Assembly: GCA_964346935.1 (NCBI GenBank)
Contig: CAYFXP010000190.1
Coordinates: 1 to 44,645 of the forward strand
Source of the DNA: an uncultured Syntrophobacterales bacterium
GTDB lineage: Bacteria > Desulfobacterota > BSN033 > WVXP01 > G020346125
Length of the DNA stretch: 44,645 nucleotides
Direction: 5' to 3'
This document shows, piece after piece, positions 8,088 through 31,300 of the stretch; within the stretch, counting starts at the first letter, position 1; each line of letters opens with the position of its first letter. The translations under genes and the position numbers were made by a program. The notes below the pieces were generated by a model that was not told the origin of the DNA, made no database searches, and saw only the letters and a list, made by a program, of their open reading frames with translations.

Positions 8088-8095
8088 TCCTTTCT

Positions 8096-10987: not shown

Positions 10988-11000
10988 TCCCCTCGGCTGA

Positions 11001-11741
11001 TTAGACAATTCCCCCATCCACGACTACCGTCTGGCCGGTGATGTAGTCGGATCCCTCCGAGGCCAGAAACAGCACGGCATGGGCGACCTCCTCGGGTCGA
11101 CCGATGCGCCCCAAGGCGGTTTGCCTGATGATGGCCTCGACCTTCTCCTTTGGGACCCTCGCCAACCAGTCCGTTTCGATAACCCCCGGCGCCACCGCAT
11201 TGACCTGGATGTTGAATTGACCCAACTCTCTGGCCAGGGATTTGGTGAAGCTTATCAAGCCTCCTTTAGAAGCGGCATAGTTGACCTGACCAGCCGTGCC
11301 CAAGATGCCGCTGACCGATGCGATATTGATGATCTTGCCCTTCCGCTGGGGAATCATCTTTCGCAGGGCGGCGCGACAGCAATAGAAGGTGCTGGTCAGA
11401 TTCGCCTTCAGGACGCGCTCCCAATCCTCATCGGACATCAACATGAGAAGGTTATCCCTCATCATGCCCACGTTGTTGACGAGGATGTCGATCCTGCCAT
11501 AGCGGCCCGCGACATCCTCCATCATAGCGCTGACTTGGTGAAAATCAGTCACATCGGCTTGGTATGGATCGAGCGTGCCCCCGAGGGATTCGGCCTCCTC
11601 GGATAGCTCCTGGGCCGCCCGTTCGTCGGAGGCATAATTGGCGATAACGAAAGCTCCCATCTCGCAGAAAGCTAAACCAATGGCCTTCCCTATTCCCTTC
11701 GAGCCACCGGTTACTATGGCTATTCGGCCATCGAACTCCAT
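11001..11741 (-). CDS. fabG: 3-oxoacyl-ACP reductase (SDR family)
   Basis: [11 protein letters not shown] cofactor motif, the NNVG segment and the YAASKGG catalytic motif. Length 246 aa. Confidence 0.9.
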
Positions 11742-11745
11742 AACA

Positions 11746-13146
11746 TTACTCCCCGGCGAGAGGCCTCACCCTTGGCCTCTTCATTCTCGCGACCAAGTTC
11801 CAAAGAGGGCCCCTGATGTGAAACCGGCGGATTTGGTCCATCAATTTCTGGGAAATGTTAATCTCTAATCCCGGCACAATCCACCCCTTCCTCTCCAAGG
11901 CCTTTTGGGAGACCCAAGACAGGATTTCATCCCCCAATTGGGGGGAGACGTAAAAATGGGGATACATGAGGTTGGTGTCGCGACCGATGATCCCCTCCGA
12001 CAGGGATATCCTCTCCAGCTCCGTTCCAGGGTATATCCGAATTCCCACCATGACGATGACTGCCGTTGGCTTGACTTGGTCCATCAAGGAGGCGGTCTCC
12101 CCCAAGGTCTTCTCGTCCTCCCCGGGCCCACCTAAGAGGAGGTAGTGGGCAAAGGGAACCTCGACCATCCTGCATATCTCAGAGGCCCGAGAAATATCCC
12201 CCAGGGAGAAGGATTTCCCAAGCCTCCTCAACATGGCGGGAGACCCTGAATCGGTGCCGAACTCGACTCCCGTACAGCCCGCCTCTTTCATGGTTTCGAT
12301 CAGCTCCTCATCGACATACCCCGGATTGACAAAGGCGCTCCATTTCAACCCGATGCCCTGATCCGCCATGGATCGGCAGAGCCCAAGGGCATAATCCCGT
12401 GGAAAGTTAAAGATATCATCCACGAAGTAGACGTAATCGACATCGTGGAGTTCCTCCAGAGCCCGGAGCTCCTGGACGACCTCCTCCGGGGGCCTCGTGC
12501 GCACGGAGGACCCCTCCAGCAGCGGGTAGGTGCAGTAGATGCACCCGAAGGGGCATCCCCTTTTGGTCTGAATGTTCCCCATCCCTCCATGGCGCAGATA
12601 TCGTGCGTTGTCCAAGAGGTCCCGATACGGAAACCCAATGGATTCGACTCCATCGATGGCCGGAACCGATTCGGGAAGATCCTCCCGTACCATCAGTCCG
12701 GGGATCCCCTTCACCGAGATTCGCTTTTCCAAGCGCCGAACAAGGGAGAGCATGGGATTCTCACCCTCTCCCACAATCCCAAAATCGACATTCAGCACCT
12801 CCAAGAGCTCCCTTGGGGCCAACGAGAACCCAGAGCCCCCAATGATCACCTTGGCCCCCGAATATTTCCTGCAGAGCGCGATCACCTCCTCCGCTTCTGG
12901 AACATATGAGAGGGCAGTTGGATAGGTCAAATTGTCCAGGTTTCTCAACGAAAGTCCGATCAGGTCAGGCCTCCACCGCGATATCTGATCTTTTAGCTCC
13001 TCCTCCACGTCGTCACTGAAACAGAGGTCCACGATTCTCAACTGATGCCCTTCCTCCTTGAGCCCGGAAGCGATATAGGCCAATCCCAAGGGGAAGACCG
13101 GAAAGGGCATTCTCTCCCTGTTTACCGATAGCAAGAGAATCTTCAT
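11746..13146 (-). CDS. B12-binding-domain radical SAM protein (lipid-cluster type)
   Basis: N-terminal MKILLLSVN...[12 protein letters not shown]...DLIGLSLRN...VIIGGSGFS, and radical SAM motif [18 protein letters not shown] overlap with the next gene at 13143-13146. Confidence 0.9.
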
Positions 13147-14468
13147 GATGGATCCGCGTCAAACCGGCGATACCTAAGCCTGTTGACGATCTCCATTTGA
13201 GCCTTCCTCAGGGCGAAATTGCTCATCAAGAAGTAGAGGAAGTGGTTCCTGTTGCCCCCCAGGAGCCTTCCAAAGATAGAGCGAGGGGAACAGCAGTACT
13301 TCTGAGCCCATAGGTATCCCTGCTGGAGTTCTTCCGGGCTCATCAGCTTTGGCTTGAATACCACATGGCTCATATCGTAGTGAGGCCAATGGTTATCGAA
13401 GATTCGCCCCTCCTCCTCGAGCCTCCTCCTCAGAGGCGTCCCGGGAAAGGGCGTGAGCACGAAGAAGTTAGGGAGCTCAATATGGGTCTCATGAACGAAA
13501 TCGACGGTCCTCCTAAACACGTCCTTGTCATCGTGATCGAATCCAAAAATAAAGGAACCCTGAATCCCTATCCCGTGGTCCTGGATTTGTTTGATGAGGT
13601 CAGCCAGCTCTCGGGTGTCCACAAAGGTCTTTCTCGCCCCATCCAAGTTCTCCTGATTGAGGGATTCGAACCCGATAAAGAGGGAGATGCACCCGCTTTC
13701 CCTGGCCAGGGCGAGCAGCTCCGGATTGCGGGCGATTTTGAGAGTACAAAATCCCATCCACTTGGGCTCATATTTCTTGAGGATGCGGAAGAGTTCGGCC
13801 GCGAATTTCGGCTGGGCAATGACGTTATCGTCGGTCAGCATGAGATATTCTCCCCCTCTCCGGATGAGGGAGGAGAGTTCGGAATCGATGTGGGAGATAG
13901 ACCTGGTCCGATATCGCATCCCGTTGATCATGGGGACGGAGCAAAACTCGCACCGATTGGGGCAACCCCTCGTCGTCTCAATAGCATTGAAGAAGCGGCT
14001 ATACCTGGAGCCCAGCAATTCCCTCCTCGGGAGGGGCATTTTTCTCAAATCGAAATAGTTTTCGGTCCGATAAAATGGCTTTAGGCAGCCTGCTTCATAG
14101 TCGGAGATGAGCTCCTGGAAGATTCCCTCCGCCTCGCCAATCAGGACGGCATCTGCATGGGCTTTTGCCTCTTGAGGCAAAAAACTCGCATGTACCCCCC
14201 CGATGACCACCGTTTTCCCCCTCGTGCGAAATTCATCCGCTAGGAAGTGAGTCCGATCCGCAACACACGTCAAAGAGGTGAGTCCCACCAAATCCACATC
14301 CGCTTTCAGATCCACCTTCTCGATGGCTTCGTTTACAATGGTAATATCCCAATCCTTGGGAAAGAGGGAGGCCAATACCGTGAGACCGAGCATGGGGAAG
14401 GGGCGGCACGTATCCGTGGACACCCTCTTTCCCCTTTCCCTCGGAAAGATGAGCAGAGCTCGCTTCAC
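13143..14468 (-). CDS. B12-binding-domain radical SAM protein (paralogue of 558..1904)
   Basis: TRGCPNRCEFCSVP. GTG start preceded by AAGGAGGT. GTGA overlap with the upstream gene. The C-terminal YLWAQKYCCSPRS is shared with the 558..1904 protein (FLWTKKYCCAPRS). Confidence 0.9.
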   Translation of the reverse strand: MKRALLIFPRERGKRVSTDTCRPFPMLGLTVLASLFPKDWDITIVNEAIEKVDLKADVDLVGLTSLTCVADRTHFLADEFRTRGKTVVIGGVHASFLPQEAKAHADAVLIGEAEGIFQELISDYEAGCLKPFYRTENYFDLRKMPLPRRELLGSRYSRFFNAIETTRGCPNRCEFCSVPMINGMRYRTRSISHIDSELSSLIRRGGEYLMLTDDNVIAQPKFAAELFRILKKYEPKWMGFCTLKIARNPELLALARESGCISLFIGFESLNQENLDGARKTFVDTRELADLIKQIQDHGIGIQGSFIFGFDHDDKDVFRRTVDFVHETHIELPNFFVLTPFPGTPLRRRLEEEGRIFDNHWPHYDMSHVVFKPKLMSPEELQQGYLWAQKYCCSPRSIFGRLLGGNRNHFLYFLMSNFALRKAQMEIVNRLRYRRFDADPS

Positions 14469-15868
14469 GTTACCTCCTTCAGAAATTCATCATACTCCTG
14501 AAAGTTCGGCTGTCTCCACTGCCTCCTGGTAGCGTTCTCCCATACGTACCTCATGATGAGCCGATACGCCATCCGCTTAAAGGGATTGCGGCTCAGCAGG
14601 GGCCCTAGCAATATCCGGGGCTGAGTATAGTACTTCTTGAGGTACGTCTTCTGGAGAGATTCCACTTCTTCTGCTGAAAGGCAATGAGTCGGCATAACAG
14701 GATGCATGAAATCATATTTACCGAGGTCAAACTCAACGATTCTCCCCGCCTTCATGGCCTCCTCATAGTAAGGAGTTCCCGGTAGTGGAGTTGTCATGGT
14801 CAATATGAGAAAATCGCTCTGCTTCTTCACGAACTGGAAGATCTCTCGTAATGTCTCCTTGCTATCGAGCCAATCCACGAACATCACGTTGGCCATAACC
14901 ATGATCCCGTTTTCCCTCAGGATATTGATGGCCTCTTGGGCCATATCCCGGTCTTGCCTCTTGTCATATCGGTCCAGCACGGAGGAGGTCACGCTCTCGA
15001 CCCCCAACATCACCTCGTAGAGCCCCAGCCGCTTGAACTCGGACATGAGATCCCGATCCCTGATGATATCCCTCACCCGCGACTGAAACCAGAAGTGAAC
15101 CCCCAGGCCCGATTTCCCCAGTTCCTCCAAGAATTCCTCCACCCGTTTCCGACTCCAATTGAAGCTATTCTCGTTGAAGACGAAGAGCGTCTTTCCGTAC
15201 CGTCCGTTCAGATAAACCATTTCCTCAACAACCCTCCTGGCACTCCTCGCCCGCCAATACCCTTGCCAGAAGGCCGTCTCGGAACAGTATGCACAACAAT
15301 CACCACAGCCGCGGCTCGTCGAAATCCCAAAAGCCTCCCTTCCCATCCCATGCCAGTAGTAGGCATCGTTCTCCACGTCGATGAGGTGGTATGCGGGCAG
15401 GGGAAGGTCATCCAAATCCTGGATGAGGGGCCTCATTCGGTTCATCACCACCTCCCCGTCATTCGAAAAGGCCAAGCCCCTGATCCCTTTCACCCCCTCC
15501 CAATCACCCTCGGCGACCTGGGAGACGAATTCAGCCATTGATCCCTCGCCCTCCCCCAACAGGACGTAGTCGAGCTCCGGCACATCTTTAAGGATGGACC
15601 TGGCTAAAAGGGTGAAATGGCTCCCGCCCGCCACGATCACGGATCGTCGCGAGAGCCGTTTGGCCAGGGCAATGGTCTGAAAGGCCTCGGGCGAAAGGCA
15701 GGTCGCACTCGCCGTGACCCCGATGATATCGGGCTGGGCCCCCGAAATCCTCCTCGCCAAATCGGACCAGGGCCTATCGAAGGTTGTGCAGTCGAGGATT
15801 TGGCAGGAAAATCCCGCCTTTTCCAGGTATGCCCCCAGGCTCAAAAGGCCGAAGGAGGGGGTCCACAT
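14465..15868 (-). CDS. B12-binding-domain radical SAM protein (N-terminus probably extends to ~15931)
   Basis: SRGCGDCCAYCSE. Coordinates use the first ATG. The in-frame upstream codons (KGKPTIFLVDPPHRLFPGLR) still align with the N-terminus of the 18512..19879 paralogue, yet contain no ATG, GTG or TTG. Confidence 0.85.
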   Translation of the reverse strand: MWTPSFGLLSLGAYLEKAGFSCQILDCTTFDRPWSDLARRISGAQPDIIGVTASATCLSPEAFQTIALAKRLSRRSVIVAGGSHFTLLARSILKDVPELDYVLLGEGEGSMAEFVSQVAEGDWEGVKGIRGLAFSNDGEVVMNRMRPLIQDLDDLPLPAYHLIDVENDAYYWHGMGREAFGISTSRGCGDCCAYCSETAFWQGYWRARSARRVVEEMVYLNGRYGKTLFVFNENSFNWSRKRVEEFLEELGKSGLGVHFWFQSRVRDIIRDRDLMSEFKRLGLYEVMLGVESVTSSVLDRYDKRQDRDMAQEAINILRENGIMVMANVMFVDWLDSKETLREIFQFVKKQSDFLILTMTTPLPGTPYYEEAMKAGRIVEFDLGKYDFMHPVMPTHCLSAEEVESLQKTYLKKYYTQPRILLGPLLSRNPFKRMAYRLIMRYVWENATRRQWRQPNFQEYDEFLKEVT

Positions 15869-15927
15869 CCTCAGCCCCGGAAAGAGCCGATGCGGGGGAT
15901 CGACCAGAAATATCGTCGGCTTGCCCT

Positions 15928-16356
15928 TTATCGTTCCACCTCCAAGTATTCCATCATCCTGCCGATCCTCTTCTGGATCGGCTCGGGAATTCGATACAAG
16001 AGGGTCCCCTTGGAATCAGTCAGCACGTGAACCGTACGCCCCGTGGCCAGGACCCTGTTTGTCTCCGCGTGCAGCACCTCATAGGTGAAGATGAGGTTGG
16101 CCAATTCCGATGGTTGCATCCCCGTCCGGATGAGCAATTCATCGTTGGGCCTTGCGGGTTCCTTGAATTGACAGTGGACCTCGACCACCGGGGCGAGAAA
16201 GCCGGCATCCTTGAGGGTCAGCGGATCCAGTTCAAATTGAAGGGCGAGCTCATTGCGGCTCACCTCGAACCAATTAATGTAGTGGCCATGCCAGACCACT
16301 TCATAGAGATCAACCTCGGTAAAACGGACCTTAAGGCGCGTCTCGTGAAATCTCAT
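15928..16356 (-). CDS. Hotdog-fold acyl thioesterase (YbgC/4HBT-like)
   Basis: VRFTEVDLYEVVWHGHYINWFEVSRNE matches the catalytic-Asp N-terminal signature of YbgC-type thioesterases. Length 142 aa. Confidence 0.8.
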   Translation of the reverse strand: MRFHETRLKVRFTEVDLYEVVWHGHYINWFEVSRNELALQFELDPLTLKDAGFLAPVVEVHCQFKEPARPNDELLIRTGMQPSELANLIFTYEVLHAETNRVLATGRTVHVLTDSKGTLLYRIPEPIQKRIGRMMEYLEVER

Positions 16357-17287
16357 TCGGTCCTAACTTCCCCATGGAGCTGGAATCTCCCGTTGCCGTG
16401 GCTTTAACTCCCCTGTCGATCCATCGGATCAATTTACAGAGGGTGGCATCGTATCCCACCTCGATAAACCAGGCCACTCCTCGACGGAGGAGCTCCCTGA
16501 CACATCCCTCCCAATAAACTGGCCTGCATATCTCATCGGCCAAGAAAGGCTTGATGTCCCCCTTTTCCAGAAACGATAGCGTCATGTGATTGAGTATTCG
16601 GAACTTGGGTTCCCTGATATCGATGTGGTCCACCAGCTCCTGGATTTCAGCCCGAACGGGTTCCATAAGGTCACAGTGAAGAGGGGCGGAAAACGTCAGC
16701 CGGTGGGCGGCAATGGCGCCCAAATCGAGGGCCAAGGGGATGAGCTTGTCAATCCCTCCATTCAATCCGGAAAGGACGAAATTTCTCGATCCGTTGTAGT
16801 TGGCGATGGAGATTCGATACCCATCCAGCCGATCCCGAATGCCCTCGATTTGATCCATCTCCAAGCCGAGGACGAGGCACATGGATCCCCCTATCTCCCT
16901 TGCCCGTCCTTCTATGAGGAGGCCGATATCCCTCGTGAGGAGGAGCCCTTCTTGAAAATCGATGCTTTCCGCGGCCACCAAGGCCGCATAGATTCCCATG
17001 CTGTGCTCAGCGATGACATGGGGGAATATCCCCTCCCGCTGTAGACGATAATAATGGATGAGGCTGATGAGGTAGCTCGCCAGCTGAAGCTTGACGTTGA
17101 AATATGGCTCCCACTCCAGCTCCTGAATGGAGAAATTGAGGACGTCAAACCCACTGACCCGCTGGGTTTCCTCGTAAATCTCCTTGGCTAACCCCTCCCC
17201 GTAAATGGAATGATACGCGGGCAGGCGAGGACGTTCCTGGAGCTGCCCAGGAAAGCAGAAGCAGATTTTCTCCCCGCCTCGCTTCAT
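16331..17287 (-). CDS. FabD-like acyltransferase (malonyl-CoA:ACP transacylase fold)
   Basis: FCFPGQ (compare FPGQGSQ), the nucleophile elbow AEHSMGIYAAL (compare GHSLGEY), and FSAPLHCDLMEP (compare the PSHCALMKP His motif). Confidence 0.8.
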   Translation of the reverse strand: MKRGGEKICFCFPGQLQERPRLPAYHSIYGEGLAKEIYEETQRVSGFDVLNFSIQELEWEPYFNVKLQLASYLISLIHYYRLQREGIFPHVIAEHSMGIYAALVAAESIDFQEGLLLTRDIGLLIEGRAREIGGSMCLVLGLEMDQIEGIRDRLDGYRISIANYNGSRNFVLSGLNGGIDKLIPLALDLGAIAAHRLTFSAPLHCDLMEPVRAEIQELVDHIDIREPKFRILNHMTLSFLEKGDIKPFLADEICRPVYWEGCVRELLRRGVAWFIEVGYDATLCKLIRWIDRGVKATATGDSSSMGKLGPNEISRDAP

Positions 17288-17302
17288 CGAATTACTCGTT
17301 TT

Positions 17303-17575
17303 TCAGCCATTATCGCGGTTTTCGACAACGTACTGGGCAATTGTTCCCACGGATTGAAAGACCTTCTGCCCCACTTCAGCATCGGGAATGATCACCCCAT
17401 ACTCCTTTTCCAGCCCCAGGACTAGCTCCAGGGCATCGATGGAATCCAAACCCAACCCCTCACCAAAAAGAGGATCGTCGGTCCCGATATCCTCGGGCGT
17501 GACCTCCTCCAGTTTAAGCCGCTCGATGATGAGCCTCTTGAGCTGAAGGATGAGCTCTTCCGTTACCGTGGTCAT
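17303..17575 (-). CDS. Acyl carrier protein
   Basis: 90 aa and acidic, with the phosphopantetheine site LGLDSIDALELVLGLE. Confidence 0.9.
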   Translation of the reverse strand: MTTVTEELILQLKRLIIERLKLEEVTPEDIGTDDPLFGEGLGLDSIDALELVLGLEKEYGVIIPDAEVGQKVFQSVGTIAQYVVENRDNG

Positions 17576-17598
17576 CTTATCATCTCACCCATGTTCGG

Positions 17599-18555
17599 TC
17601 ATTCCCAATAAGAATAAAAGTTATACCATTGATCCGGGTATCGGCGAATGTAATCCTCGAAGACTCGGGTAATCTCCTGCATACCCTCCCGAATAACCCG
17701 CTCCCGTTTACCCCTTTCGCTCCCATCGAAGTAGATCGGCTTCTCGATGATTCCCCGATATTTCCAACCCTTCTCCATCACCACGAAGACGGGAAGAACC
17801 GGTGACCCGGCCATCATAGCCAGCATGGCAACGCCCATGGGAAACCGCGTCCTTCGGCCGAAGAAATCCACGTCGATGGTATTGGGGGAATCCTGCCGGT
17901 CGCCCAACATGGCGACGATCTCGTTATTCCTCAAGGCCTTGACCAGCTCTATGGTCGAAAAGGGATCCTCCCCTCCTCCCTTGATATAGAGTTCCCTGAT
18001 CCCCTTGGAATGCCTGAATCTCCCTCTGAAGGCCTTGGTCCTGGGGTCGGGTTCATCCAAGGACAGTACATTAAGGGTTCCCCCCCTGAAGGCCAGCAAC
18101 AGGCCCCCCATCTCCCAATTCCCCAGGTGCGGGGTAATGCAGATAGCCCCTTTTCCCTTCCTGAGTGCCTGGGCCATGTACTCCGCTCCGAGTTCTCCCT
18201 CTATCACCCTCCGCTTGTTGGAGGGGGTAATTTGATGTATCACCATGTAGTCCAACAGATATTGCCCATAGTTTCGAAAGGTCTTGCGGGCCAACCTGGA
18301 AATTTCTTGAGGGCTCAGTCGTCCTCGGCCGATTACCTCAAGGTTCCGTTTCACCGCCCGCCGGCTTCGCCTCATCAGCATATAGAAGATGTCGCCCACC
18401 GGAATGGCGACGAACTTCTGTACCGAACGAGGAATGAGGATCGAGCCCAAAAAGAACCCCAAGAGGTAAATGTATCTGTTCAAGGGACGGACGTTCTGTT
18501 CCCGCCTGGAATCACCCAATAAAGTACTCCTTGATAAAACGGAGAAGGGTTCCAA
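17599..18555 (-). CDS. LpxL/HtrB-family lysophospholipid/lipid A-type acyltransferase
   Basis: N-terminal membrane anchor and the family signature ITPHLGNWEMGG (HxGNWE). Length ~318 aa. Confidence 0.8.
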   Translation of the reverse strand: MEPFSVLSRSTLLGDSRREQNVRPLNRYIYLLGFFLGSILIPRSVQKFVAIPVGDIFYMLMRRSRRAVKRNLEVIGRGRLSPQEISRLARKTFRNYGQYLLDYMVIHQITPSNKRRVIEGELGAEYMAQALRKGKGAICITPHLGNWEMGGLLLAFRGGTLNVLSLDEPDPRTKAFRGRFRHSKGIRELYIKGGGEDPFSTIELVKALRNNEIVAMLGDRQDSPNTIDVDFFGRRTRFPMGVAMLAMMAGSPVLPVFVVMEKGWKYRGIIEKPIYFDGSERGKRERVIREGMQEITRVFEDYIRRYPDQWYNFYSYWE

Positions 18556-19879
18556 CCCCCAACCTGTGGCGTTTGATCAGTTGAAAGACATCTGTTCGTC
18601 CCTTTTTGGACCTCATATAATAGAGGAAATTGGCCTTCAGAAGCAACCACTGGAGACGGACGAAGGAGATATGATCGTGCTTAAACACCAGGTGCTGGGC
18701 ATCATAGAAGGTCCACGGCCTGCGGAACAAGCGGGCCTTCACCTTCTCATAGAGGGCGGTACCCGGGTAAGGCGTTAGAATGGAGAACTGCGCGACGTTG
18801 GTATCGAGCCGCTTGGCCCAATGGATGGTTTCGTTAACGGCCCCGGCCGTTTCCCCGAGTCCCCCCAAGATGTAGCTGGCGAAGATCTCAAATCCATTCC
18901 GCTTCAAAATCTCTACCGCTCGTTCGGCCATCCCGATATCGGACCTCTTCCCGAACTCCTCCAGGCTTTGCCGATGGGGGGTCTCAACTCCTATGTATAT
19001 GGTCTTGGCACCCGCTTTCCGCATCTTCCTGAGCATTGGCTCGTTCTTAACGATGGTATCGGCTCGGGAGAAATTCCACCACCAGATGTCAAGATTTCTC
19101 TGGATGATTCCTTCCGATAGCTCCATAATCCTTTGGGGGGAGAGGGTAAAATTATCATCCACAAATGCGATGGCATTAAAGCGATAACGCCGAACAAGCT
19201 CCTCGATCTCCTGGAGTACCGAGGACACGCTGCGGCTCCTCCACTTTCTGCCGAAGAAGGTGGAGGACGAACAAAAGGAGCAGTTGCTGGGACACCCTCG
19301 GCTGGTGATCACGGGCGTAATATCCCGATCCCCGAACTTGGTCTGCCGGTAATCGTTCATGTCGATGAGATGTCGAGCGGGCAAGGGGAGCTCGTCGAGG
19401 TCTTGGATGAACTCCCTCCGGGGTGTCCTCACGATATGACCATTCTGAGCAAAGCTGACCCCCTTAATGCGGGAAAACTCTCCCCTCTCCTTTTGCAATT
19501 CGACGAGGAGCTCGTGGAGGGTGACTTCCCCTTCCCCATGGACAACGAAATCCACACGGCCGGCCTTCAACACCTCCTCATCGACAAAACAGGGATGGGG
19601 GCCCCCCATGATAACGGTGCACCCTGCCCTTCGAGCCCTCTTGGCGATCTTGAGGGCATTGTAAAAGCGCGTTGTATCAGTGCCAATGCCCACCACGTCA
19701 TAATCTCGAAACCGGATATCCCCCTTCGAACCTCTGTGGATACACAGGTCCTTCACCTCTGGATGATGGCCCTCCCTCTCCAGATAGGCAGCCAGGGAGA
19801 GGAGCCCAAGCGGGGGAAAGTGGAGGCCTACGGCCTTCAGAATGCCGGTGTTGGGTGGGTTAATCAGCAACATTCTCAT
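18512..19879 (-). CDS. B12-binding-domain radical SAM protein
   Basis: MRMLLINPP...FPPLGLLSLAAYLEREG...DVVGIGT...VIMGGPHP, and SRGCPSNCSFCSS. Start taken at ATG 19879 after a G-rich RBS (the track starts at 19927). The 3' end overlaps the next gene by 44 nt. Confidence 0.9.
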   Translation of the reverse strand: MRMLLINPPNTGILKAVGLHFPPLGLLSLAAYLEREGHHPEVKDLCIHRGSKGDIRFRDYDVVGIGTDTTRFYNALKIAKRARRAGCTVIMGGPHPCFVDEEVLKAGRVDFVVHGEGEVTLHELLVELQKERGEFSRIKGVSFAQNGHIVRTPRREFIQDLDELPLPARHLIDMNDYRQTKFGDRDITPVITSRGCPSNCSFCSSSTFFGRKWRSRSVSSVLQEIEELVRRYRFNAIAFVDDNFTLSPQRIMELSEGIIQRNLDIWWWNFSRADTIVKNEPMLRKMRKAGAKTIYIGVETPHRQSLEEFGKRSDIGMAERAVEILKRNGFEIFASYILGGLGETAGAVNETIHWAKRLDTNVAQFSILTPYPGTALYEKVKARLFRRPWTFYDAQHLVFKHDHISFVRLQWLLLKANFLYYMRSKKGRTDVFQLIKRHRLGVGTLLRFIKEYFIG

Positions 19880-19933
19880 GCGGCCCCCCGTTTGTCGACC
19901 CACCATCGGCCTATGGGAAGCCCCCAAGCAGAA

Positions 19934-20926
19934 TCAGTCGGGTACCGACCGGATCGCGACTCGAGCCTCCTCCTGGGCGCCCTCAAAGGCATCGCTATGC
20001 TTTCCACAGGTATCCCCCCAGCAGGCCACGGCTTTCCCTTCGGCAATCAGTTCCATCACGTCACAGGTATTTCCACATCCATCGCATTCGAAGCTTCGGG
20101 TCGAAAAATTCCATTCGGCGACTTCTACTCCCTTGAAGCAAGTCTTGGAGGGCCTCACCCTTCTCACCAGCTTTGCGGCTCCGATAGCACCCATCAGGTC
20201 AAAGTGAGGCGGGACGATGACTTCCAACCCCAATTCCCTTTCCAAGGCCTGTCTGATTCCCCTGTTTGCGGCCACCCCGCCTTGGAAGACGACAGGGGGC
20301 AAGATCTCCTTACCCCTTGAAACGTTGTTCAGGTAGTTCTTGACCAGGGAATCGCATAACCCGGCGATGATATCCTCTATTTGATACCCCAGTTGCTGCT
20401 TGTGGATCATATCCGTTTCGGCAAAGACCGTACACCGCCCCGCAATGCGGACCCTATCCCGAGACCTTAAGGCCCAATCCCCGAAGTCCTCTATGGAAAT
20501 CCCAAGCCGGGAGGCCTGTTGGTCCAGAAAGGAACCCGTTCCCGCTGCGCAGACCGTGTTCATGGCGAAATCAACTACCACCTCCTCCCTCAGGATGATG
20601 ATCTTCGAGTCCTGCCCCCCGATTTCAATGATGGTCTTTGCATCGGGTACATAATCGACGACCGCCAAGGCGTGGGCCGTAATCTCATTCTTCACGACAT
20701 CGGCCCCAACCAGATAGGCCGCCAAGTGTCGAGCGCTTCCCGTGGTCCCAATCCCTTCTATGGAAAGGGGATTGCCCGCCTGACGAGTGATGCTCCGTAT
20801 TCCTTCCTGAATAGCGGCGATGGGCTTTCCCGCGTTTCTGAGGTAGGCATGGGCGATAACGCGATCTTCCCCATCGGTGAGGACAACCTTGGTCGTGATG
20901 GATCCCACATCGATTCCTAAATACAC
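19934..20926 (-). CDS. BcrAD/BadFG/HgdC-type ATPase (activase-like) with a C-terminal 4-Cys motif
   Basis: YLGIDVGSITTKVV (ASKHA phosphate-1). Cluster-ligand contexts NTVCAAGTGSFLDQQ and AGRCTVFAETDMIH. C-terminal FECDGCGNTC...CWGDTCGKH. GTG start after GAGGGGGAG. Confidence 0.88.
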   Translation of the reverse strand: MYLGIDVGSITTKVVLTDGEDRVIAHAYLRNAGKPIAAIQEGIRSITRQAGNPLSIEGIGTTGSARHLAAYLVGADVVKNEITAHALAVVDYVPDAKTIIEIGGQDSKIIILREEVVVDFAMNTVCAAGTGSFLDQQASRLGISIEDFGDWALRSRDRVRIAGRCTVFAETDMIHKQQLGYQIEDIIAGLCDSLVKNYLNNVSRGKEILPPVVFQGGVAANRGIRQALERELGLEVIVPPHFDLMGAIGAAKLVRRVRPSKTCFKGVEVAEWNFSTRSFECDGCGNTCDVMELIAEGKAVACWGDTCGKHSDAFEGAQEEARVAIRSVPD

Positions 20927-21930
20927 GTCTCCCCCTCAGACTGCAACGCTCTCGTCCTTCTCTGCGTACAGATGTCTACAAAGGCCTCCAATCTGGTGGC
21001 CAGGCCCTGGACGGTGGCATGCTCGTCCAGCGATAAGGTCAGGAAGGGAATGGTACTTTCTCCATGGGCCTTAAAAGCCCTCTTGAGATACTCCTGCAGG
21101 AGGGCATCGATACCGCATTTGAAGGAGCTTAAGAAGACCACGCCATCTATGTCGTTTCGCCTAAGGAAAATAAACGCAGCCCCAACAATTTCCCTCCCCG
21201 ATGACCAGTAGATCTCCTTGGATAGATTTGAGACCCTCCTATCGACCTCACCTCCGTCCAAGGAGTCGGCGATGGCGATCTGGCAGCCCAATTTCCTGAC
21301 CATCCCGAGGACATCTTTACTTACATCCGCATCATAGATATTGTAGGGATGACCGATGAGGGCGATATTGAGATCTCCAGACCAGGAGGTCGTCTCTGGT
21401 GTTGGTATCTCCAACGTGAAGATATCCCTAATGGGCAACCCGTTCACCCTCTTCGCCAAATCACCCTCGAATTCCCGCTGGGCAGAAAGAGCCGCGCGGG
21501 ACGCAGCACGGATCTGCCCTGGTTTCAACCCCAACCGCTCGCCTATGGCCTTAGAGAAGCCGCTCCATGGATCACTCCCCAACCGATAATCGAGGGAATC
21601 ATCAATGACTTCAGCTTGGTTCCCGGTGGCTAATTTAACGATATCAGGAACCCCCCTGAACTTTGGGCACATGATGTATTTGCGATGAATGCTGATTAGC
21701 CGCGGCACGAAGAGGAAGTCCACCTCCTTCGCAAGGTCAAGACAATGGGCGACCATCAACTTCATGGGGAAACAGCTATCCTCGAAATAACCGATGGCTT
21801 GTCTGCCGAGCAATCCCCTTCCCATCGGATCAGAGGTAACTACTTCACATCCCATTTCCCGGAAAAAGGCGGACCAAAGGGGAAAGAAGCGATAGTACAT
21901 GAGTCCCTTAGGGATGCCTACTCGTCTCAA
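20917..21930 (-). CDS. HgdA/B-like, DUF2229-type 'CoA enzyme activase-associated' protein (middle-domain type)
   Basis: VGIPKGLMYYRFFPLWSAFFREMGCEV and FLSSFKCGIDALL...LSLDEHATVQGLATRLEAFVD align by eye with residues ~680-990 of the 1407-aa protein. TTG start. Confidence 0.8.
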   Translation of the reverse strand: MRRVGIPKGLMYYRFFPLWSAFFREMGCEVVTSDPMGRGLLGRQAIGYFEDSCFPMKLMVAHCLDLAKEVDFLFVPRLISIHRKYIMCPKFRGVPDIVKLATGNQAEVIDDSLDYRLGSDPWSGFSKAIGERLGLKPGQIRAASRAALSAQREFEGDLAKRVNGLPIRDIFTLEIPTPETTSWSGDLNIALIGHPYNIYDADVSKDVLGMVRKLGCQIAIADSLDGGEVDRRVSNLSKEIYWSSGREIVGAAFIFLRRNDIDGVVFLSSFKCGIDALLQEYLKRAFKAHGESTIPFLTLSLDEHATVQGLATRLEAFVDICTQRRTRALQSEGETCI

Positions 21931-21967
21931 TGAAATCCTTGCCTCCCCTGATCCACCATCAAGGCAT

Positions 21968-22212
21968 CATCTGCGGCGTTGCCTTCGATCGCTCCTCCTT
22001 GCGGCGTATTGCTCCATACGCCTCAGTCGTCGCTCCTCGGCGCCTTGCATCTAATACCTTGCTGGTGATCAGGAATATTTCTATAACCTGCTGATTTCAG
22101 TTTTGACGGCTTCGTAAAAAGTCCACCTGCTGCGTTACGCCTCATCTTTCGTCATTGCGGCGTACTGGTAAGTACGCCTCATTCCTCAAGATTCGCAAGC
22201 CTTGCATTTGGC
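21968..22212. repeat. Two direct copies (~85 nt, offset 156 nt) of a hairpin-containing REP-like element
   Basis: Copy 1 is 21968-22052 and copy 2 is 22124-22209 (CTGC[G/T]GCGTT...TTGCGGCGTA...TACGCCTCA...GCCTTGCAT). Hairpins are GGCGTAT/ATACGCC (22003-22022) and GGCGTACT/AGTACGCC (22159-22178). Confidence 0.6.
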
Positions 22213-23379
22213 GCTTTTTACTTTGCCGTCGGATTTTTGACATTTTACGAGTTCATCAGTTTTAATACCTAAATTAGACGGTGGATTTTGGCGTCTCCTC
22301 CACCTGAGCATATCCACGAAGGCCTCAAGCAACGTGATAATCCGCCCCTCGTTCTCCTGCTCGTCCAAGATGAGGGTAAGGACGGGAAGGCCCAAATCCC
22401 TGCTCACCCGATCGAGGATCCCCGATGCAGTGGTTTCCGGCATACACGCGAAGGGCATCAAGTGGACGACCCCGTCGTAACCGTCCTTTGCCCTGAGGAT
22501 GGTTTCCCCTATGGAGACGTTGCATTCGGCCCCCACATCGTAGCCTAAATATTCAAGGGAAGCCTGATGGTAGCTCAGCCGCTCCCGCCGATTCTTCCTC
22601 CCCACGCCCAGGCTTCTCATAATGTGCGAGGAAAACCACGAGGTTCGGCTTACCTCGACCCCCAATTCCCCTAGTTTTCGCTCGACTCCCTTGTTGATTT
22701 GGGGATCCATCACCGTATAGAGCTCACCCACGATGGCTACCTTCAGGGGCTGTCGACCACGGTCTTGATCAACGGAATCGAGGATTTTCTCCCCATCGAT
22801 GACGGCCCTTTCGATGGCCTTGCCCGTTTTCGCCCTATCGAGACCTGCGAGGACTTTCTGCAAAGCCTTCTCCGTTCGCCCTATAATGACTTCTCTGGCC
22901 CGCACCTTCAAGGCCAGCTTCTCCAGCTTTTCGCAGGCCATCATCTTTTTCCAGCCAACCCAGAGGGCATAGGGGAACGTCGCGATGTTCTTGAAGCTTA
23001 ACTCCTTCTTCAGCTCCATGGTCTCTTCCCTATTCTTGAGCAGGGCCGGCCAGTCCAGCGTGGGGGGAATGGTCAACCATCTATAGTGAAGGCCTAAGTC
23101 CTCAAGGATGACCTTTTGAACCAGGTCATAGAGGCCGAGCCTACAAGGAGGACCGCTTCCCACCATTATGATGGTGTCCGCGCCCAGCTCCAGGGCCTCG
23201 ATGAAATTTCCCAGGATAATCTTAAAAGGGAGGCAAATACATTCGTTGGAATTCTTAACGCCTAGGGTGAGGGTCTTCTTGCTCGTTTTGGGTGGGACGA
23301 CATAATCGATACCCGCGGTTTCCGCGATCGCCTTGCAGAATATGTGCATCGTTCCCAGGTGCGGAAAGGTGACCTTCAT
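22186..23379 (-). CDS. HgdA/B-like, DUF2229-type protein (C-terminal-domain type)
   Basis: KVTFPHLGTMHIFCKAI...NECICLPFKIILG and HLMPFACMPETTASGIL...LILDEQENEGRIITLLEAFVD align by eye with residues ~1000-1390 of the 1407-aa protein. ATGA overlap with the upstream radical SAM gene. Confidence 0.8.
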   Translation of the reverse strand: MKVTFPHLGTMHIFCKAIAETAGIDYVVPPKTSKKTLTLGVKNSNECICLPFKIILGNFIEALELGADTIIMVGSGPPCRLGLYDLVQKVILEDLGLHYRWLTIPPTLDWPALLKNREETMELKKELSFKNIATFPYALWVGWKKMMACEKLEKLALKVRAREVIIGRTEKALQKVLAGLDRAKTGKAIERAVIDGEKILDSVDQDRGRQPLKVAIVGELYTVMDPQINKGVERKLGELGVEVSRTSWFSSHIMRSLGVGRKNRRERLSYHQASLEYLGYDVGAECNVSIGETILRAKDGYDGVVHLMPFACMPETTASGILDRVSRDLGLPVLTLILDEQENEGRIITLLEAFVDMLRWRRRQNPPSNLGIKTDELVKCQKSDGKVKSAKCKACES

Positions 23380-24767
23380 GCATGTTTACCCCCTGCTCCT
23401 ACCTCCACCTCCCCCGCATCCCCTTCCTGCCACGCGGCATCGGCTATTGCCCCGTACTCCTCGGCAAACCGATCGATATCGGGCGCCAAATCCGCAAAGA
23501 GGGCCCGCGCACCGGGATGGGTAAAGTATCCGGCATAATTGAGGGCAAGATCCCTCCCCTGACGAGGATGATCGATTAACATACAAGGCCTCATGTGATT
23601 CTCGGAAAAGGGCTGCCGAGCCCGAATCTCCCTGAAAAGGGGAGATGTAAGCACCTCAAGAAGGGATTTCCCCCGAATATTATCCGATGCAAAATGACAG
23701 AAAACACAGGGCTCCACATCGCCCCGGGCGTTGATGTGCAAGTACTTCCTCCCCCCAGCAATACACCCCTGGGTGAGATGACCATCGTTCCAAAAATCAA
23801 CAAACAGCATGGGCTTGGTTGCCCGAAAATACCGCAACCGCTCCCGCATCAAATTCCTCTGCCCAGGGGTAGCCATCATCCTGAGATCCGGATTCCTCCC
23901 AATGGGAACGTAATAGAAATTCCACATCAGAATACACCCCTTCTCCACCAAAAAATCGATGAACTCGTCGCTCGTCAGAATATCGGTGTTAAAACACGTC
24001 TGAGTCGTGGAAACCGCGAAAAAAAGACCCGCCTCCCTCAAAAGATCCATCACCCGCACATTCCACTCGAAACGACCCTCGCCCCTCCTCAAATCGGTAT
24101 GATCCTGAAGCCCCTCCACGCTGATGGCCGGCATGACATTGCCCAACCCGATAAACCGATCCACCATCTTCTCGTCAATCAGGGTCGCATTGGTATAGAT
24201 CTGAAAACTTACATCCCCGTGCCTCTCGAAAAGCTCGAATATGTCACCCCTCAGGAAGGGCTCCCCCCCCGTAAAGAGAATGAGGTGAATCCCCATCTCC
24301 TTGCCCTCGGCGATCACCCTGTCGATGATCTCCAACTCCATCTCCTCCCCATACTCATAGTCCCCCGAATAGCACCCATCGCAGCTGAGGTTGCACCGCA
24401 TGGTCGGACTGATGAGAAGGGCATCGGGCGGATAGACCCCCGTGCTCGCCTCGAATTCCTTCCGCCTATTGGTGCCCACCAAGAGCTGATTGATGATGAA
24501 GTTGGTGATGATCTTCCTGCGGTGATGCGAATTTGCCTCCCTCAATATTCGCTTGGCTAACTGAAGCCCCGGGTGCTTCCGCCTGAAGAGCTCCCTGATC
24601 CAACGGATCTTCCTCCGATATGAATCCTTTCGCGGGATTCTCTCGGCCAGGTGTGTCAGACGGATCAGCTGCTCATCGGATGCACTGGCCAGAAGGGAGA
24701 GGGCACTGGTGGTGAACTTCTCGAGGGAGTAGTGCTTCATCCTCGTGTAGACGCTTACCTTTGACAT
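23376..24767 (-). CDS. Radical SAM protein with a C-terminal SPASM/twitch-like Cys region
   Basis: PTMRCNLSCDGCYS (CxxxCxxC), LFTGGEPFL, and C-terminal GCIAGGRKYLHINARGDVEPCVFCHF...RPCML. Start taken at ATG 24767 after AAAGGTGGAG (the track starts at GTG 24776). Confidence 0.85.
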   Translation of the reverse strand: MSKVSVYTRMKHYSLEKFTTSALSLLASASDEQLIRLTHLAERIPRKDSYRRKIRWIRELFRRKHPGLQLAKRILREANSHHRRKIITNFIINQLLVGTNRRKEFEASTGVYPPDALLISPTMRCNLSCDGCYSGDYEYGEEMELEIIDRVIAEGKEMGIHLILFTGGEPFLRGDIFELFERHGDVSFQIYTNATLIDEKMVDRFIGLGNVMPAISVEGLQDHTDLRRGEGRFEWNVRVMDLLREAGLFFAVSTTQTCFNTDILTSDEFIDFLVEKGCILMWNFYYVPIGRNPDLRMMATPGQRNLMRERLRYFRATKPMLFVDFWNDGHLTQGCIAGGRKYLHINARGDVEPCVFCHFASDNIRGKSLLEVLTSPLFREIRARQPFSENHMRPCMLIDHPRQGRDLALNYAGYFTHPGARALFADLAPDIDRFAEEYGAIADAAWQEGDAGEVEVGAGGKHA

Positions 24768-24791
24768 TCGCTCCACCTTTTCCGCCGAGAT

Positions 24792-27947: not shown

Positions 27948-28034
27948 ACTCAATGATCCTCGTGTTTGCTGAGCTTGAGGACCGAGTGAACCCGTTGCCC
28001 CTGAGCGAAATCTGCTGGAAAAGTGGGGGCCATC

Positions 28035-28344: not shown

Positions 28345-31300
28345 ATGGACGGGTTCTATTTAGGCATCGACGTCGGATCGGTGAGTGCCAACACGGTTAT
28401 CTTGGACAGCAATCGACTGGTCGTTGAGGAGCACTACACGCGGACTAGGGGACGTCCGCTGAGGGCTGTCAAGACAATCCTAGAGGAAATAGTGGATCGC
28501 ATTCCTATGGAGCGGTTTCAAGCGATTTCCCTGACGGGAACGGGGGGAAAACTGCTGGCTGAACTCCTGGGCGGGATGTTCATCAACGAAATCATGGCAC
28601 AGGCTAAAGCGGTCTCCTCCCTCTATCCCGAAGTACGAACGATAATCGACGTGGGAGGCGAGGACTCCAAACTTATTCTCGTCGACTACGAGGGAGGGGA
28701 CGGGCATTTCAAGATCAACGATTTTGCCATGAACACCCTCTGTGCAGCGGGAACGGGCTCCTTTCTGGATCAACAGGCCAGCCGGCTGGGGCTCACTATC
28801 GAGGAATTTGGGCAGCTGGCCTTGAGGTCGGAGAATCCTCCCCGTATTGCGGGTAGGTGCAGCGTCTTCGCAAAATCGGATATGATCCATTTGCAGCAGA
28901 TTGCCACGCCCGACTATGACATCGTGGCCGGCCTCTGTTTCGCCCTGGCCAGGAATTTCAAGAGCAACATCGCAAAGGGGAGAACGCTTATAAAGCCCGT
29001 CTCGTTTCAAGGAGGTGTGGCCGCTAATCTGGGGATGAGGAGGGCTTTCCAGGAGGTCTTGGATTTAGCTGAGGGAGAATTGATCATCCCGAAATACTAC
29101 GCCTCCATGGGGGCCATCGGGGCCGTGTTGATGACCATGGAGGATCAGGCCTCTGATCGGCACTTCATGGGCATCGAGCGGCTTGAAGACTACCTCAACC
29201 ATCACCGGGAGTCTAGGGCGAGCCTCGAAAAACTCTCCCTATCAGAGAATTACCTGAAGACGGGTGAAAAGGGAGCACCCACTCCCCTTCAAGGGAAAAG
29301 GATCGATGCATACCTTGGCTTGGATGTGGGTTCCATCAGTACCAATCTCGTAGTCATCGATGAGAATGAAAACGTGCTCTCGAAGCGATACCTCATGACG
29401 GCGGGCAGGCCCATCGAGGCCGTGAGGATAGGCCTCAAGGAGATCGGAGAGCAAATCGGAGACCGGGTCAACATAAAGGGTTGTGGAACCACAGGATCCG
29501 GAAGGTATCTCACCGCTGATTTCGTGGGGGCGGACATCGTCCGAAACGAGATTACGGCTCAGGCAACGGCCGCGGCACGCATTGACCCCCACGTCGATAC
29601 CATTTTTGAAATCGGTGGACAGGATTCCAAATACATTAGCCTCGAGAACGGCGTCGTCGTGGACTTCGAGATGAACAAGGTATGTGCTGCCGGAACTGGT
29701 TCCTTCCTGGAGGAGCAAGCGGAAAAGCTGGATATCTCCATCAAGGAGGAATTCGGGAACCTCGCCCTCGATGCCCCTGAGCCCATCAGGATGGGGGAGA
29801 GGTGTACGGTCTTCATCGAGTCGGATCTGGTTCACCATCAGCAACGAGGTGCCAAGACCGACGACCTCGTGGCTGGACTGAGTTACTCCATCGTCCAGAA
29901 TTACCTCAACCGCGTGGTAGGTGAAAAACGCGTAGGGGATCACATCTTCTTCCAAGGTTGTACAGCCTTCAACAGGGGGGTCGTAGCCGCCTTCGAGCGG
30001 TGGCTCGGAAAGGATATCGTCGTTCCCGAGAACCACGATGTTACCGGGGCCATCGGGGTGGCCATCCTGGCAAAGGAGGAGAGGACCTGGGAGGAGAGCA
30101 CGTTTAAAGGATTTGACCTCAGCGAAAGGAAATATGAACTCACCACCTTCGAATGCAAGGGCTGCTCCAATATGTGCCTCATCCGGAGGGTGAGCGTCGA
30201 GGGGGAGAAGCCCCTCTTTTACGGGAGCAGGTGCGAGAAGTACGATGTCATCAAGAGGAGCCGGGGAGAGAACGTGCCCGATATCTTCGCCGAGAGGGAA
30301 GAGCTGCTGTTCGCCCCCTATGAGGGGGAGGAGGACCTCCCCGAGGATGCTCCGGTAATCGGCATTCCCAGGATTCTGCACTTCCACGAGCTCTTCCCCT
30401 TCTGGAAGGCATTTTTGACGGAGTTGGGCTATCGAATCGTGCTTTCAGACCCCACCAATAAAGAGCTCATTCGAGAAGGGGTTGAAACCATTGTGGCCGA
30501 GACCTGCTTTCCCATCAAGGCGGCACATGGCCATGTGCTCAACCTCCTGAAGAAGGGGATCAAGGATATCTTCATCCCCAGTGTCATCAACATCGAATCT
30601 CCCGACCCCGAAATCGAGCTTACCCAGACCTGTCCCTACATCCAATCCTTTCCCTATGCGGCGAAATCCTCCATCGACTTCAACGGGTATGGAGCGAAGG
30701 TCCTTCAGCCCATCATCCATTTCGGGTGGGGGAGAGACCAGGTGGAAAGGGAATTGGTTCGGTTTGGAAGGCAGTTGAAACGCAGCGCCTCCAAGGTGAG
30801 GAAGGCCTTCGAAAAGGCTAAGGCAAATCAGAAGAAGTTCTACGGGGCGCTGATCAAGAGGGGACGGGAAATTGTGGAGGGGTTGAAACCGGGGGAGAAG
30901 ATAATGGTTATCGTGGGGCGACCGTATAACAGCTGTGATTCCGGAGTCAACCTCGAGGTTCCCAAGAAGCTCAGGGAGATGGGCGTACTGGCGCTGCCCA
31001 TGGACTACCTGTCCCTGGATTTGGCCTCTCGCAAAGAAGGGATAAAGGAGATGTACTGGCGCTATGGGCAGAAGATCTTGAGCGCTGCCCATCTCATCAG
31101 GGAGAATCCAAACCTCTCTGGGGTTTTCATCAGCAACTTCGGCTGTGGGGCGGACTCCTTCATCCTTCACTTCTTCAGGGATACGCTGAGGGGGAAACCC
31201 TTTTTGCAATTGGAGATCGATGAACATAGCGCCGATGCCGGGGTGATCACCCGGTGTGAGGCCTTCCTGGATAGCCTGAAACACGCCAGGGAACCGGCAA

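Follow-up and report, generated by a model that had tools for sequence, protein, structure and literature searches.

A three-polypeptide DUF2229-type activator and reductase system within a lipid gene cassette of an uncultured Syntrophobacterales bacterium

We analysed a 44,645-nt stretch of DNA from an uncultured Syntrophobacterales bacterium (contig CAYFXP010000190.1 of assembly GCA_964346935.1; the whole stretch is called the window below), and in particular a trio of consecutive genes encoding two DUF2229 proteins and an HgdC-type activator ATPase. The three open reading frames (ORFs) of 397, 337 and 330 aa are present on the minus strand, carry all the motifs quoted in a first-pass annotation of the same DNA, and form part of a long minus-strand gene train. 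Because the proteins align colinearly with the domains of a fused 1407-aa protein also encoded in the window, they were named Red2, Red1 and Act, respectively. The genes follow the order Red2-Red1-Act:

22186..23379, minus strand: Red2-like DUF2229 subunit, 397 aa; Pfam DUF2229 at 3.2e-12, plus an HGD-D C-terminus
20917..21930, minus strand: Red1-like DUF2229 subunit, 337 aa, TTG start; Pfam DUF2229 at 3.5e-43, full length
19934..20926, minus strand: Act, HgdC-type activator ATPase, 330 aa, with an extra C-terminal Cys4 module; PF01869 at 2e-48

In Pfam searches, DUF2229 (PF09989) extended over the full length of Red1, and that of Red2 scored 47 bits against a cutoff of 29.4. The HGD-D domain (PF06050) at the C-terminus stayed below threshold in both Red proteins, with 22.7 and 24 bits against a cutoff of 28.4. 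Act matched BcrAD_BadFG (PF01869) and also TIGR00241, "acyl-CoA dehydratase activase", with 192.9 bits against a cutoff of 125.4. The stop codon of the radical S-adenosylmethionine (SAM) gene upstream, which encodes a SPASM-type enzyme (rSAM-SPASM), overlaps the start of Red2 by 4 nt (ATGA), and a gap of 6 nt separates Act from the downstream gene for a B12-binding radical SAM protein (B12-rSAM), both as first described. Two details of that description needed correction. It had called the ATPase split; Act itself is intact, and what is split is the system, into three polypeptides. The additional C-terminal Cys motif of Act is indeed present, with the spacing C281-x2-C284-x3-C288-x13-C302-x4-C307 and not the x17 given earlier.

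We searched the PDB with the sequence of Act and obtained 4eht (1.6e-37) and 1hux (2.4e-36), the activators of 2-hydroxyisocaproyl-CoA and 2-hydroxyglutaryl-CoA dehydratase, as matches. They cover residues 3-254 only, and the last ~75 residues of Act, including the Cys4 module, have no counterpart in those activators. Cysteine conservation was counted across 60 to 86 split systems from several phyla at 36-95% identity (Red2, 86 sequences; Red1, 73; Act, 60). The bridging-cluster residues C126 and C165 of Act were invariant, in agreement with the earlier assignment as an HgdC/HadI-type activator. C281, C284, C288 and C307 were invariant as well, and C302 was kept in 20% of the homologues. Exactly three cysteines were invariant in Red2 (C49, C79 and C312) and exactly three in Red1 (C53, C88 and C272).

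The structure of Red2 was predicted with AlphaFold2 (pLDDT of 85.9, pTM of 0.84), and the PDB hits of a Foldseek search were ranked. The top 15 hits were all DCCP, HadBC, BzdNO or MbdON, and the significant matches (E of 8e-10 to 2e-5, TM of 0.45-0.56) comprised only members of the benzoyl-CoA reductase/2-hydroxyacyl-CoA dehydratase (BCR/HAD) superfamily. A profile of 20 Red2 homologues matched DCCP and HadC over the C-terminal 65 residues, and the profile search aligned the invariant Cys of the Red2 motif PFxCMPE with the Cys of FCQP/FCDPE. A direct PDB sequence search with Red1 gave no match even at E = 1. The fold of Red2 and the three invariant cysteines in each Red protein bear out the proposal that the DUF2229 proteins are remote HgdAB/HadBC/BcrBC-type subunits, and the Fe-S ligands, whose conservation had been raised as a check, are conserved. 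The other setting considered then, a locus for amino-acid fermentation or aromatic degradation, was not encountered: no CoA-transferase, fermentation or aromatic-degradation genes surround the trio in the window or at the annotated loci. We regard the identity as a DUF2229/BCR-HAD system as secure.

The fused protein, which the first-pass annotation did not mention, is encoded ~5 kb from the trio and divergently from the surrounding cassette:

28345..32568, plus strand: fused paralogue, 1407 aa, Act1-Act2-Cys4-Red1-Red2; Pfam two PF01869 and one PF09989

Act was 48% identical to Act2 of this protein (residues 323-633, Cys4 motif included), Red1 29% identical to residues 672-985 (E of 7e-39) and Red2 24% identical to residues 1000-1391 (E of 1e-24). 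The fused protein has the same Cys pattern as the trio; its Cys4 residues are C604/C607/C611/C630, and the spacing C-x2-C-x3-C-x18-C is identical in Act. The trio thus holds PF01869, PF09989 and a second Red domain with an HGD-D-like C-terminus, distributed over three polypeptides. Its gene order is permuted compared to the fusion (Act1-Act2-Red1-Red2), and the two tandem activation domains fused to Red1 are not found in it; a single stand-alone ATPase is encoded instead. Thousands of homologues of ~1400 aa at 70-92% identity to the fused protein exist in Thermodesulfobacteriota metagenome-assembled genomes (MAGs), under generic "activase" names only.

A full-text search for "DUF2229" returned essentially only studies of Ger, the glycerol ester reductase of bacteria. 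In T. maritima and D. alkenivorans, this enzyme consists of two PF01869 "activation" domains, one PF09989 "reduction" domain and small D/H pieces (PMC13159169), and when expressed anaerobically in E. coli it converts glycerolipid ester bonds to alkyl ethers (PMC13159169, PMC11150832). It is homologous to the plasmalogen synthase PlsA/PlsR of C. perfringens, of the BCR/HAD family, which in many bacteria is encoded by a single ~4.2-kb gene with the order Act1-Act2-Red1-Red2 (PMC12838417). The products are vinyl ethers for PlsA/PlsR and alkyl ethers for Ger (PMC13159169, PMC8788747, PMC12838417); both convert sn-1 (and sn-2) esters, and only under anoxia (PMC13159169, PMC8788747, PMC11150832, PMC12838417). 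The presence of two fused activation domains has been linked to alkyl-ether formation (PMC13274423), and extra PlsA homologues that lack activation domains have been described in Bacillota, with no role assigned (PMC11868695, PMC13274423). In its predicted domain arrangement, the 1407-aa protein has this published PlsA/Ger architecture. It had been suggested that either an acyl thioester reaction or a reductant supply by such a system would be new in a lipid cluster. The characterised PF01869 plus PF09989 proteins are, however, all lipid enzymes (PlsA/PlsR and Ger); a lipid role for the enzyme type is already established, and this claim of newness therefore fails.

The possibility that the trio arose by recent fission of the neighbouring fused gene was rejected, because each of its proteins is closer to the split systems of other phyla (clade III, described below) than to the fused paralogue. 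The respective distances were 0.65 versus 0.83 for Red2, 0.69 versus 0.75 for Red1 and 0.41 versus 0.55-0.57 for Act. Judged by these distances, the trio is part of a split lineage that is old and occurs in several phyla.

We consider it somewhat more probable than the alternatives combined (a probability of roughly 0.55) that the trio is a three-polypeptide, PlsA/PlsR-Ger-type member of the DUF2229 branch of the BCR/HAD superfamily that acts on a lipid carbonyl of the cassette. Most likely, the trio would use ATP to reduce the carbonyl of an ester or thioester in the lipid made by the operon. The substrate class is the least secure step. An O-ester of a lipid or glycolipid is proposed tentatively, at slightly less than even odds, because of the only characterised relatives and the acyltransferase and acyl carrier protein (ACP) context.

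If cluster content, subunit assembly, electron path and substrate follow those of the family, an Act homodimer would hold one [4Fe-4S] cluster between two C126/C165 pairs and would be reduced by a ferredoxin-type donor. ATP hydrolysis would then drive a very-low-potential electron from Act into a Red1/Red2 heterodimer, each subunit of which would carry a [4Fe-4S] cluster on its three cysteines, with one iron free for the substrate carbonyl. The resulting ketyl radical would allow reduction and dehydration of the carbonyl. The substrate may be an acyl ester, possibly an acyl-ACP thioester, of an unusual lipid or glycolipid built by the operon, and the linkage formed would be an ether, a vinyl ether or a deoxygenated one. 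The partner of the trio is probably the rSAM-SPASM enzyme whose gene overlaps Red2.

We surveyed 80 loci from species-representative genomes, mapped with the proteins of the window. Red2 had more than 1282 homologues; the top 120 were all at least 70% identical, 366 aa long and from Deltaproteobacteria, Thermodesulfobacteriota or Syntrophaceae MAGs. The Red2 clade has one representative in a library clustered at 50% identity, and most of the next relatives, at 44% identity or less, either stand alone at ~365 aa or are fused Red1-Red2 proteins of ~700-770 aa. Clade I comprises ~15 Thermodesulfobacteriota MAG species at 66-91% identity, and also the loci L088 and L089 at 90-95%. The conserved order begins with ATP-grasp, (deacetylase), glycosyltransferase family 2 (GT2), rSAM-SPASM, Red2, Red1 and Act, and continues with (B12-rSAM), an LpxL-like acyltransferase, ACP, a FabD-like protein, a 4HBT thioesterase, three B12-rSAM and FabG. 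Within clade I the identities were 70-73% for Red2, 67-70% for Act, 64-73% for rSAM-SPASM and 48-50% for Red1.

The four loci of a "type B" subset (L001, L005, L006 and L026) keep (acylphosphatase), ATP-grasp, GT2, rSAM-SPASM and Red2. In these loci the Red2 orthologue (71-73%) is followed by a full-length canonical HGD-D protein (PF06050, 1.7e-35; e.g. L005:10001-12120) and not by a DUF2229 Red1. Two branches of the superfamily appear to have exchanged a subunit naturally here. Since Red1 is less conserved and can be swapped for an HGD-D protein, the comparison suggests that Red2 is the specificity-bearing subunit.

The split trio recurs near B12-rSAM, an LpxL-like acyltransferase or a phytoene-desaturase-like gene in two more Desulfobacterota clades. 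The order in clade II (53-55%) is B12-rSAM, Red2, Red1 and Act, followed by a phytoene-desaturase-like flavoprotein, and in L007 and L027 (43%) it is Act, Red2, Red1, Red1, Red2, LpxL-like acyltransferase and B12-rSAM. These two Syntrophorhabdus-type loci (L027:4172-9319 and L007) may represent a doubled reductase set with one activator. Clade III, with ~55 loci at 36-43%, spans Bacillota, Actinomycetota, Atribacteria and Dehalococcoidales and has the order Red1-Red2-Act, with none of the window's lipid genes beside the trio; cultured Bacillota with such trios include Fervidicola ferrireducens, Desulfotruncus arcticus and Pelotomaculum propionicicum. At one of the loci surveyed, from an Actinomycetota MAG (L029:8255-14977), ApbE on the opposite strand precedes the trio, and NfnA-like and NfnB/GltD-like genes, which could be an electron-donor module for the activator, follow it; B12-rSAM/GT2 sugar genes are near as well. 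An ApbE gene is likewise found next to the trio in L071 and beside the window's cassette (6558-7616).

The survey bears on the second option offered by the first-pass annotation, namely that Act and the Red proteins have no substrate of their own and pump electrons into the neighbouring radical SAM clusters. A functional connection of this kind could be read from the 4-nt overlap with rSAM-SPASM in every clade I locus and from the four B12-rSAM genes nearby. Nevertheless, three invariant cysteines per Red protein resemble, in this superfamily, the pattern of a substrate-binding, catalytic cluster more than that of a four-Cys relay; no homologue of the radical SAM genes of the window lies within 10 kb of the ~55 split trios in Bacillota and other phyla; and type B loci hold rSAM-SPASM and Red2 but no ATPase nearby. 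We know of no precedent for ATPase/Red-type reductant supply to radical SAM enzymes. The proposal found no positive support, and we judge it highly improbable.

The enzyme coupled to Red2 was compared with other radical SAM proteins:

23376..24776, minus strand: radical SAM/SPASM-type enzyme; Pfam Radical_SAM and SPASM; stop overlaps the Red2 start

Its gene is always immediately upstream of Red2 in clade I loci, and its family parallels that of Red2 in size and identity range. The protein has a CX3CX2C motif, five more invariant cysteines and an all-helical N-terminal extension of ~112 aa. Both profile search and fold showed resemblance to the generic SPASM/twitch enzymes SkfB, SuiB, anSME, PqqE and BlsE. 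A role as a Tes/GDGT-MAS-like tail-coupling enzyme was rejected: the match to 7tol covered the radical SAM core only (9.4e-7) and ranked behind SkfB and SuiB, and GDGT-MAS was outside the top 50 Foldseek hits of the AlphaFold2 model. A reading of ATP-grasp, GT2 and rSAM-SPASM as a pathway for a ribosomally synthesized and post-translationally modified peptide was not favoured: no conserved small precursor ORF was found (the 89-aa ORF at 27950-28219 is not conserved), and the N-terminal domain of rSAM-SPASM is all-helical.

The operon spans 27567 (ATP-grasp) to 7641 (FabZ), and most of its genes overlap or are very closely spaced. Its parts beyond the trio and rSAM-SPASM, of which the first three are the upstream genes of the conserved core, are:

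26302-27567, minus strand: ATP-grasp (Pfam)
25463-26305, minus strand: polysaccharide deacetylase (Pfam); TIGR03006 at 272.7 against a cutoff of 276.2
24792-25466, minus strand: GT2 (Pfam), resembling polyprenyl-phosphate glycosyltransferases (NCBIfam)
7641..19927, minus strand: downstream lipid block (Pfam, NCBIfam), with an order conserved in clade I

The downstream block starts with B12-rSAM, an LpxL/PatA-like acyltransferase, ACP, a FabD-like acyltransferase and a 4HBT thioesterase, followed by three B12-rSAMs, FabG, a ketosynthase (KS), a KS resembling chain-length factors (CLF-like KS), a small membrane protein and FabZ. The last of the three B12-rSAMs (11746-13146) scored 393.3 against the TIGR04072 cutoff of 360, and ACP, KS, CLF-like KS, FabG and FabZ genes are adjacent. 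The KS/CLF-like pair consists of two FabF homologues on the minus strand. The upstream one (9773-11017) keeps the Cys-His-His contexts, and the downstream one (8572-9780) has lost both catalytic His residues (HGTGT to VGNSS, and GHCLG to GESIA). The same loss is reportedly described for the anammox ladderane cluster in a 2026 preprint.

Five genes for B12-binding radical SAM proteins lie within 20 kb, four in the cassette (11746-19927, minus strand) and one at the left edge of the window (537-1904, plus strand). An NCBIfam cutoff is reached by 11746-13146 alone; the remaining four come closest to the BchE, HpnJ and HpnR types, far below the cutoffs. The FabZ ORF as called (7641-8572, minus strand) has a 76-aa N-terminal extension and overlaps by 211 nt a 158-aa ORF that matches "small multidrug export protein" (PF06695); FabZ translation probably begins at a site further downstream. 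A 38-nt stretch between the divergent acylphosphatase and fused genes (27992-28029) matches L089:10891-10928, which is intergenic within the L089 cassette, at 92%, and could be a short repeat or a regulatory motif.

Comparison with two related loci showed that the cassette can be absent. In L091 (fused protein 88% identical), the flanking genes and their order agree with the window (HhH-GPD, PRT, DUF2062, DUF748 ... ApbE, acylphosphatase, fused gene, Fer4, LUD), and everything between ApbE and acylphosphatase is missing (L091:7786-9357). L090 (91%) carries the upstream part of the cassette beside the fused gene, and its contig ends within Red2. On the strength of these two loci, the ~20-kb cassette (7641-27567), trio included, is accessory, and the fused Ger/PlsA-like gene is retained without it. 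Set against L091, the whole lipid cassette seems to be polymorphic for presence and absence.

The neighbouring genes suggest two other substrates. The cassette core may build a lipid-phosphate-linked amino sugar or head group of an envelope glycoconjugate, in which the Red complex would deoxygenate or reduce a carbonyl. GT2 is indeed nearest to lipid-phosphate glycosyltransferases of the AglJ, PpgS and ArnC types, the deacetylase is similar to that of the XrtA system, the best matches of the acyltransferase are phosphatidylinositol mannoside and lipid A acyltransferases, and the core of ATP-grasp, GT2, rSAM-SPASM and Red2 persists where the fatty-acid synthesis (FAS) genes are absent. However, there is no precedent for BCR/HAD-type enzymes acting on sugars, and the family matches of GT2, deacetylase and acyltransferase are below or at the cutoffs and thus weak as evidence of function. 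A glycoconjugate substrate therefore seems very unlikely to us.

The second proposal places the trio in fatty-acid synthesis, as a catalyst of an unusual dehydration or reduction on acyl-ACP or acyl-CoA before chain transfer. The best-understood members of the superfamily use thioester-stabilised ketyl radicals, and Red2 folds like HadBC and BzdNO. Furthermore, the clade I trio lies directly upstream of B12-rSAM, acyltransferase, ACP, FabD-like and 4HBT genes, and the Act/Red genes of L027 abut the LpxL-like acyltransferase and B12-rSAM. On the other hand, both Red proteins score as DUF2229 and not as HGD-D, with PF06050 below threshold, and where DUF2229 proteins have been characterised, they act on membrane-lipid O-esters. 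In addition, the Red2 orthologues of type B loci sit with ATP-grasp, GT2 and rSAM-SPASM, with no ACP or FAS genes within 10 kb. We regard thioester chemistry as unlikely, though not negligibly so.

Several observations weigh against a PlsA/PlsR-Ger-type enzyme acting on the cassette lipid, which we nonetheless prefer. Type B loci have neither an ATPase nor FAS genes within 10 kb, and split trios of Bacillota, as in Desulfotruncus arcticus, lie among sporulation and housekeeping genes and not lipid genes. The GT2, deacetylase and ATP-grasp neighbours could mean that the substrate is a glycoconjugate and not a glycerolipid. The proposed link to PlsA/PlsR/Ger is built on Pfam architecture, the fused paralogue of the window and the literature; with Red subunits only 24-29% identical to that paralogue, the substrate may differ. 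Moreover, PlsA and Ger are considered in the field to be indistinguishable by sequence (PMC11868695, PMC13274423).

The gap between Red2 and Red1 contains an element outside the enzyme system, which resembles a miniature inverted-repeat transposable element (MITE):

21939..22292: MITE-like insertion of ~354 nt, between Red2 and Red1

The insertion is missing in L088 and L089. In close relatives that lack it, Red2 is 366 aa long and its stop codon overlaps the TTG start of Red1 (TTGA). The ~354-nt insertion thus accounts for both the 255-nt gap before the Red1 gene and the extra tail of Red2, whose 31 non-conserved residues, absent from the 366-aa homologues, are read-through into the insertion; it breaks the translational coupling of Red2 and Red1. 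The terminal inverted repeats of the element are 10 nt long (21951-21960 and 22277-22286). Inside it lies a direct repeat of 64 nt with GCGGCGTA...TACGCCTCA hairpins, and GGAGGAG.C / GGGGAGGCA may be a target duplication. A partial copy was found at L022:932-1084, where a 158-nt part of the insertion matches at 72%, and because of this match the insertion may be a member of a MITE-like repeat family of Desulfobacterota. Searches gave no Rfam family, no plasmid match and no second copy within the window.

The enzyme type is known; what appears to be new is the arrangement of the trio and its embedding in the cassette. The split lineage, the permuted Red2-Red1-Act order, the single ATPase and the conserved cassette context appear to be undescribed. 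To our knowledge, PlsA/Ger is so far the only anaerobic ether-forming enzyme type with experimental support. Its split form is an old and widespread lineage, and in Thermodesulfobacteriota this form is wired into a conserved, abundant and transferable cassette that also encodes a ladderane-type FAS block and five radical SAM enzymes and that coexists with the canonical fused enzyme and does not replace it. Additional PlsA/Ger homologues with no assigned role have been reported (PMC13274423, PMC11150832). The chemistry of the enzyme itself is expected, and the cassette offers a testable link between two classes of radical enzymes in anaerobic lipid tailoring; it is a clonable gene set for asking how ATP-driven ketyl-radical and radical SAM chemistry cooperate.

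A bolder proposal is that the cassette is a self-contained pathway for an undescribed ether-linked, radical-SAM-tailored (e.g. multiply methyl-branched) lipid or glycolipid of uncultured Thermodesulfobacteriota. The trio, together with the translationally coupled rSAM-SPASM, would then have specialised in reducing esters to ethers, apart from the fused Ger/PlsA with its housekeeping role. Its substrate would be one that Ger cannot use, for example a non-glycerol ester, an sn-2 ester or an acyl chain specific to the cassette. We consider this distinctly unlikely as a whole. Anoxic settings are where bacteria make ether lipids, among them the branched tetraethers that serve as climate proxies, and the producers and enzymes are largely unassigned. 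If the proposal is true, orphan branched ether lipids of anoxic sediments could originate in part from such a pathway. Should the trio do no more than Ger does, the finding would be ordinary.

Among known systems, the distal half of the cassette resembles the ladderane-type clusters of anammox bacteria and Desulfotalea, with a TIGR04072 B12-rSAM, FabF and CLF-like FabF, a FabZ variant and a dedicated ACP. The ladderane cluster of Kuenenia also includes a polysaccharide-deacetylase-like protein, Kuste3351 (PMC2649909), and the phytoene-desaturase-like gene of clade II loci is a further likeness (PMC2649909, PMC10139942). An HgdC- or DUF2229-type system is not mentioned in these two papers on ladderane clusters.

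Within the BCR/HAD superfamily, the best match of Red2 was the double-cubane cluster protein DCCP, whose reductase is DCCP-R (PDB 6ENO and 7YYL; Foldseek 8e-10, hmmsearch 1.3e-4); DCCP is likewise paired with an ASKHA ATPase. DCCP is a homodimer, and its [8Fe-9S] cluster needs six cysteines. We rejected DCCP membership of the trio, whose Red1 and Red2 are distinct subunits having only three invariant cysteines apiece. HgdC/HgdAB, HadI/HadBC, BcrABCD, BzdNOPQ and MbdONPQ share with the trio a homologous activator (~1e-37) with both cluster cysteines and the logic of ATP-driven electron injection. Red2 also has the fold of the 2-hydroxyacyl-CoA dehydratases and class I benzoyl-CoA reductases, with three cysteines per catalytic subunit. 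In contrast, the Red proteins are only ~10-17% identical to these enzymes and fall below the PF06050 threshold, the Cys4 module of Act is absent from HgdC and HadI, and trio loci lack the CoA-transferase, fermentation or aromatic-degradation context of those systems.

The same domain set as in the trio (HgdC-type activation, DUF2229 Red1 and reduction/dehydration Red2) is found in PlsA/PlsR, which is CPE1194/1195 in C. perfringens and a single-gene PlsA in Enterococcus, Lactococcus and Bifidobacterium. It is an oxygen-sensitive Fe-S enzyme of the BCR/HAD family in lipid metabolism, and PlsA and PlsR are already split at the Red1/Red2 boundary (PMC12838417, PMC8788747). The trio differs in having three polypeptides, one activation domain and not two, and the order Red2-Red1-Act, in its embedding in a 20-gene radical SAM/FAS cassette where PlsA/PlsR genes stand alone, and in being only 24-48% identical to the fused protein of PlsA/PlsR architecture. 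Ger (T. maritima Tmari_0479; D. alkenivorans SHJ90043) is described as a BBD arrangement with H/D pieces, of ~150-160 kDa, and occurs in Thermodesulfobacteriota. The description applies to the 1407-aa protein of the window, to which the trio is paralogous domain by domain; the trio differs from Ger in being split and in having a single ATPase.

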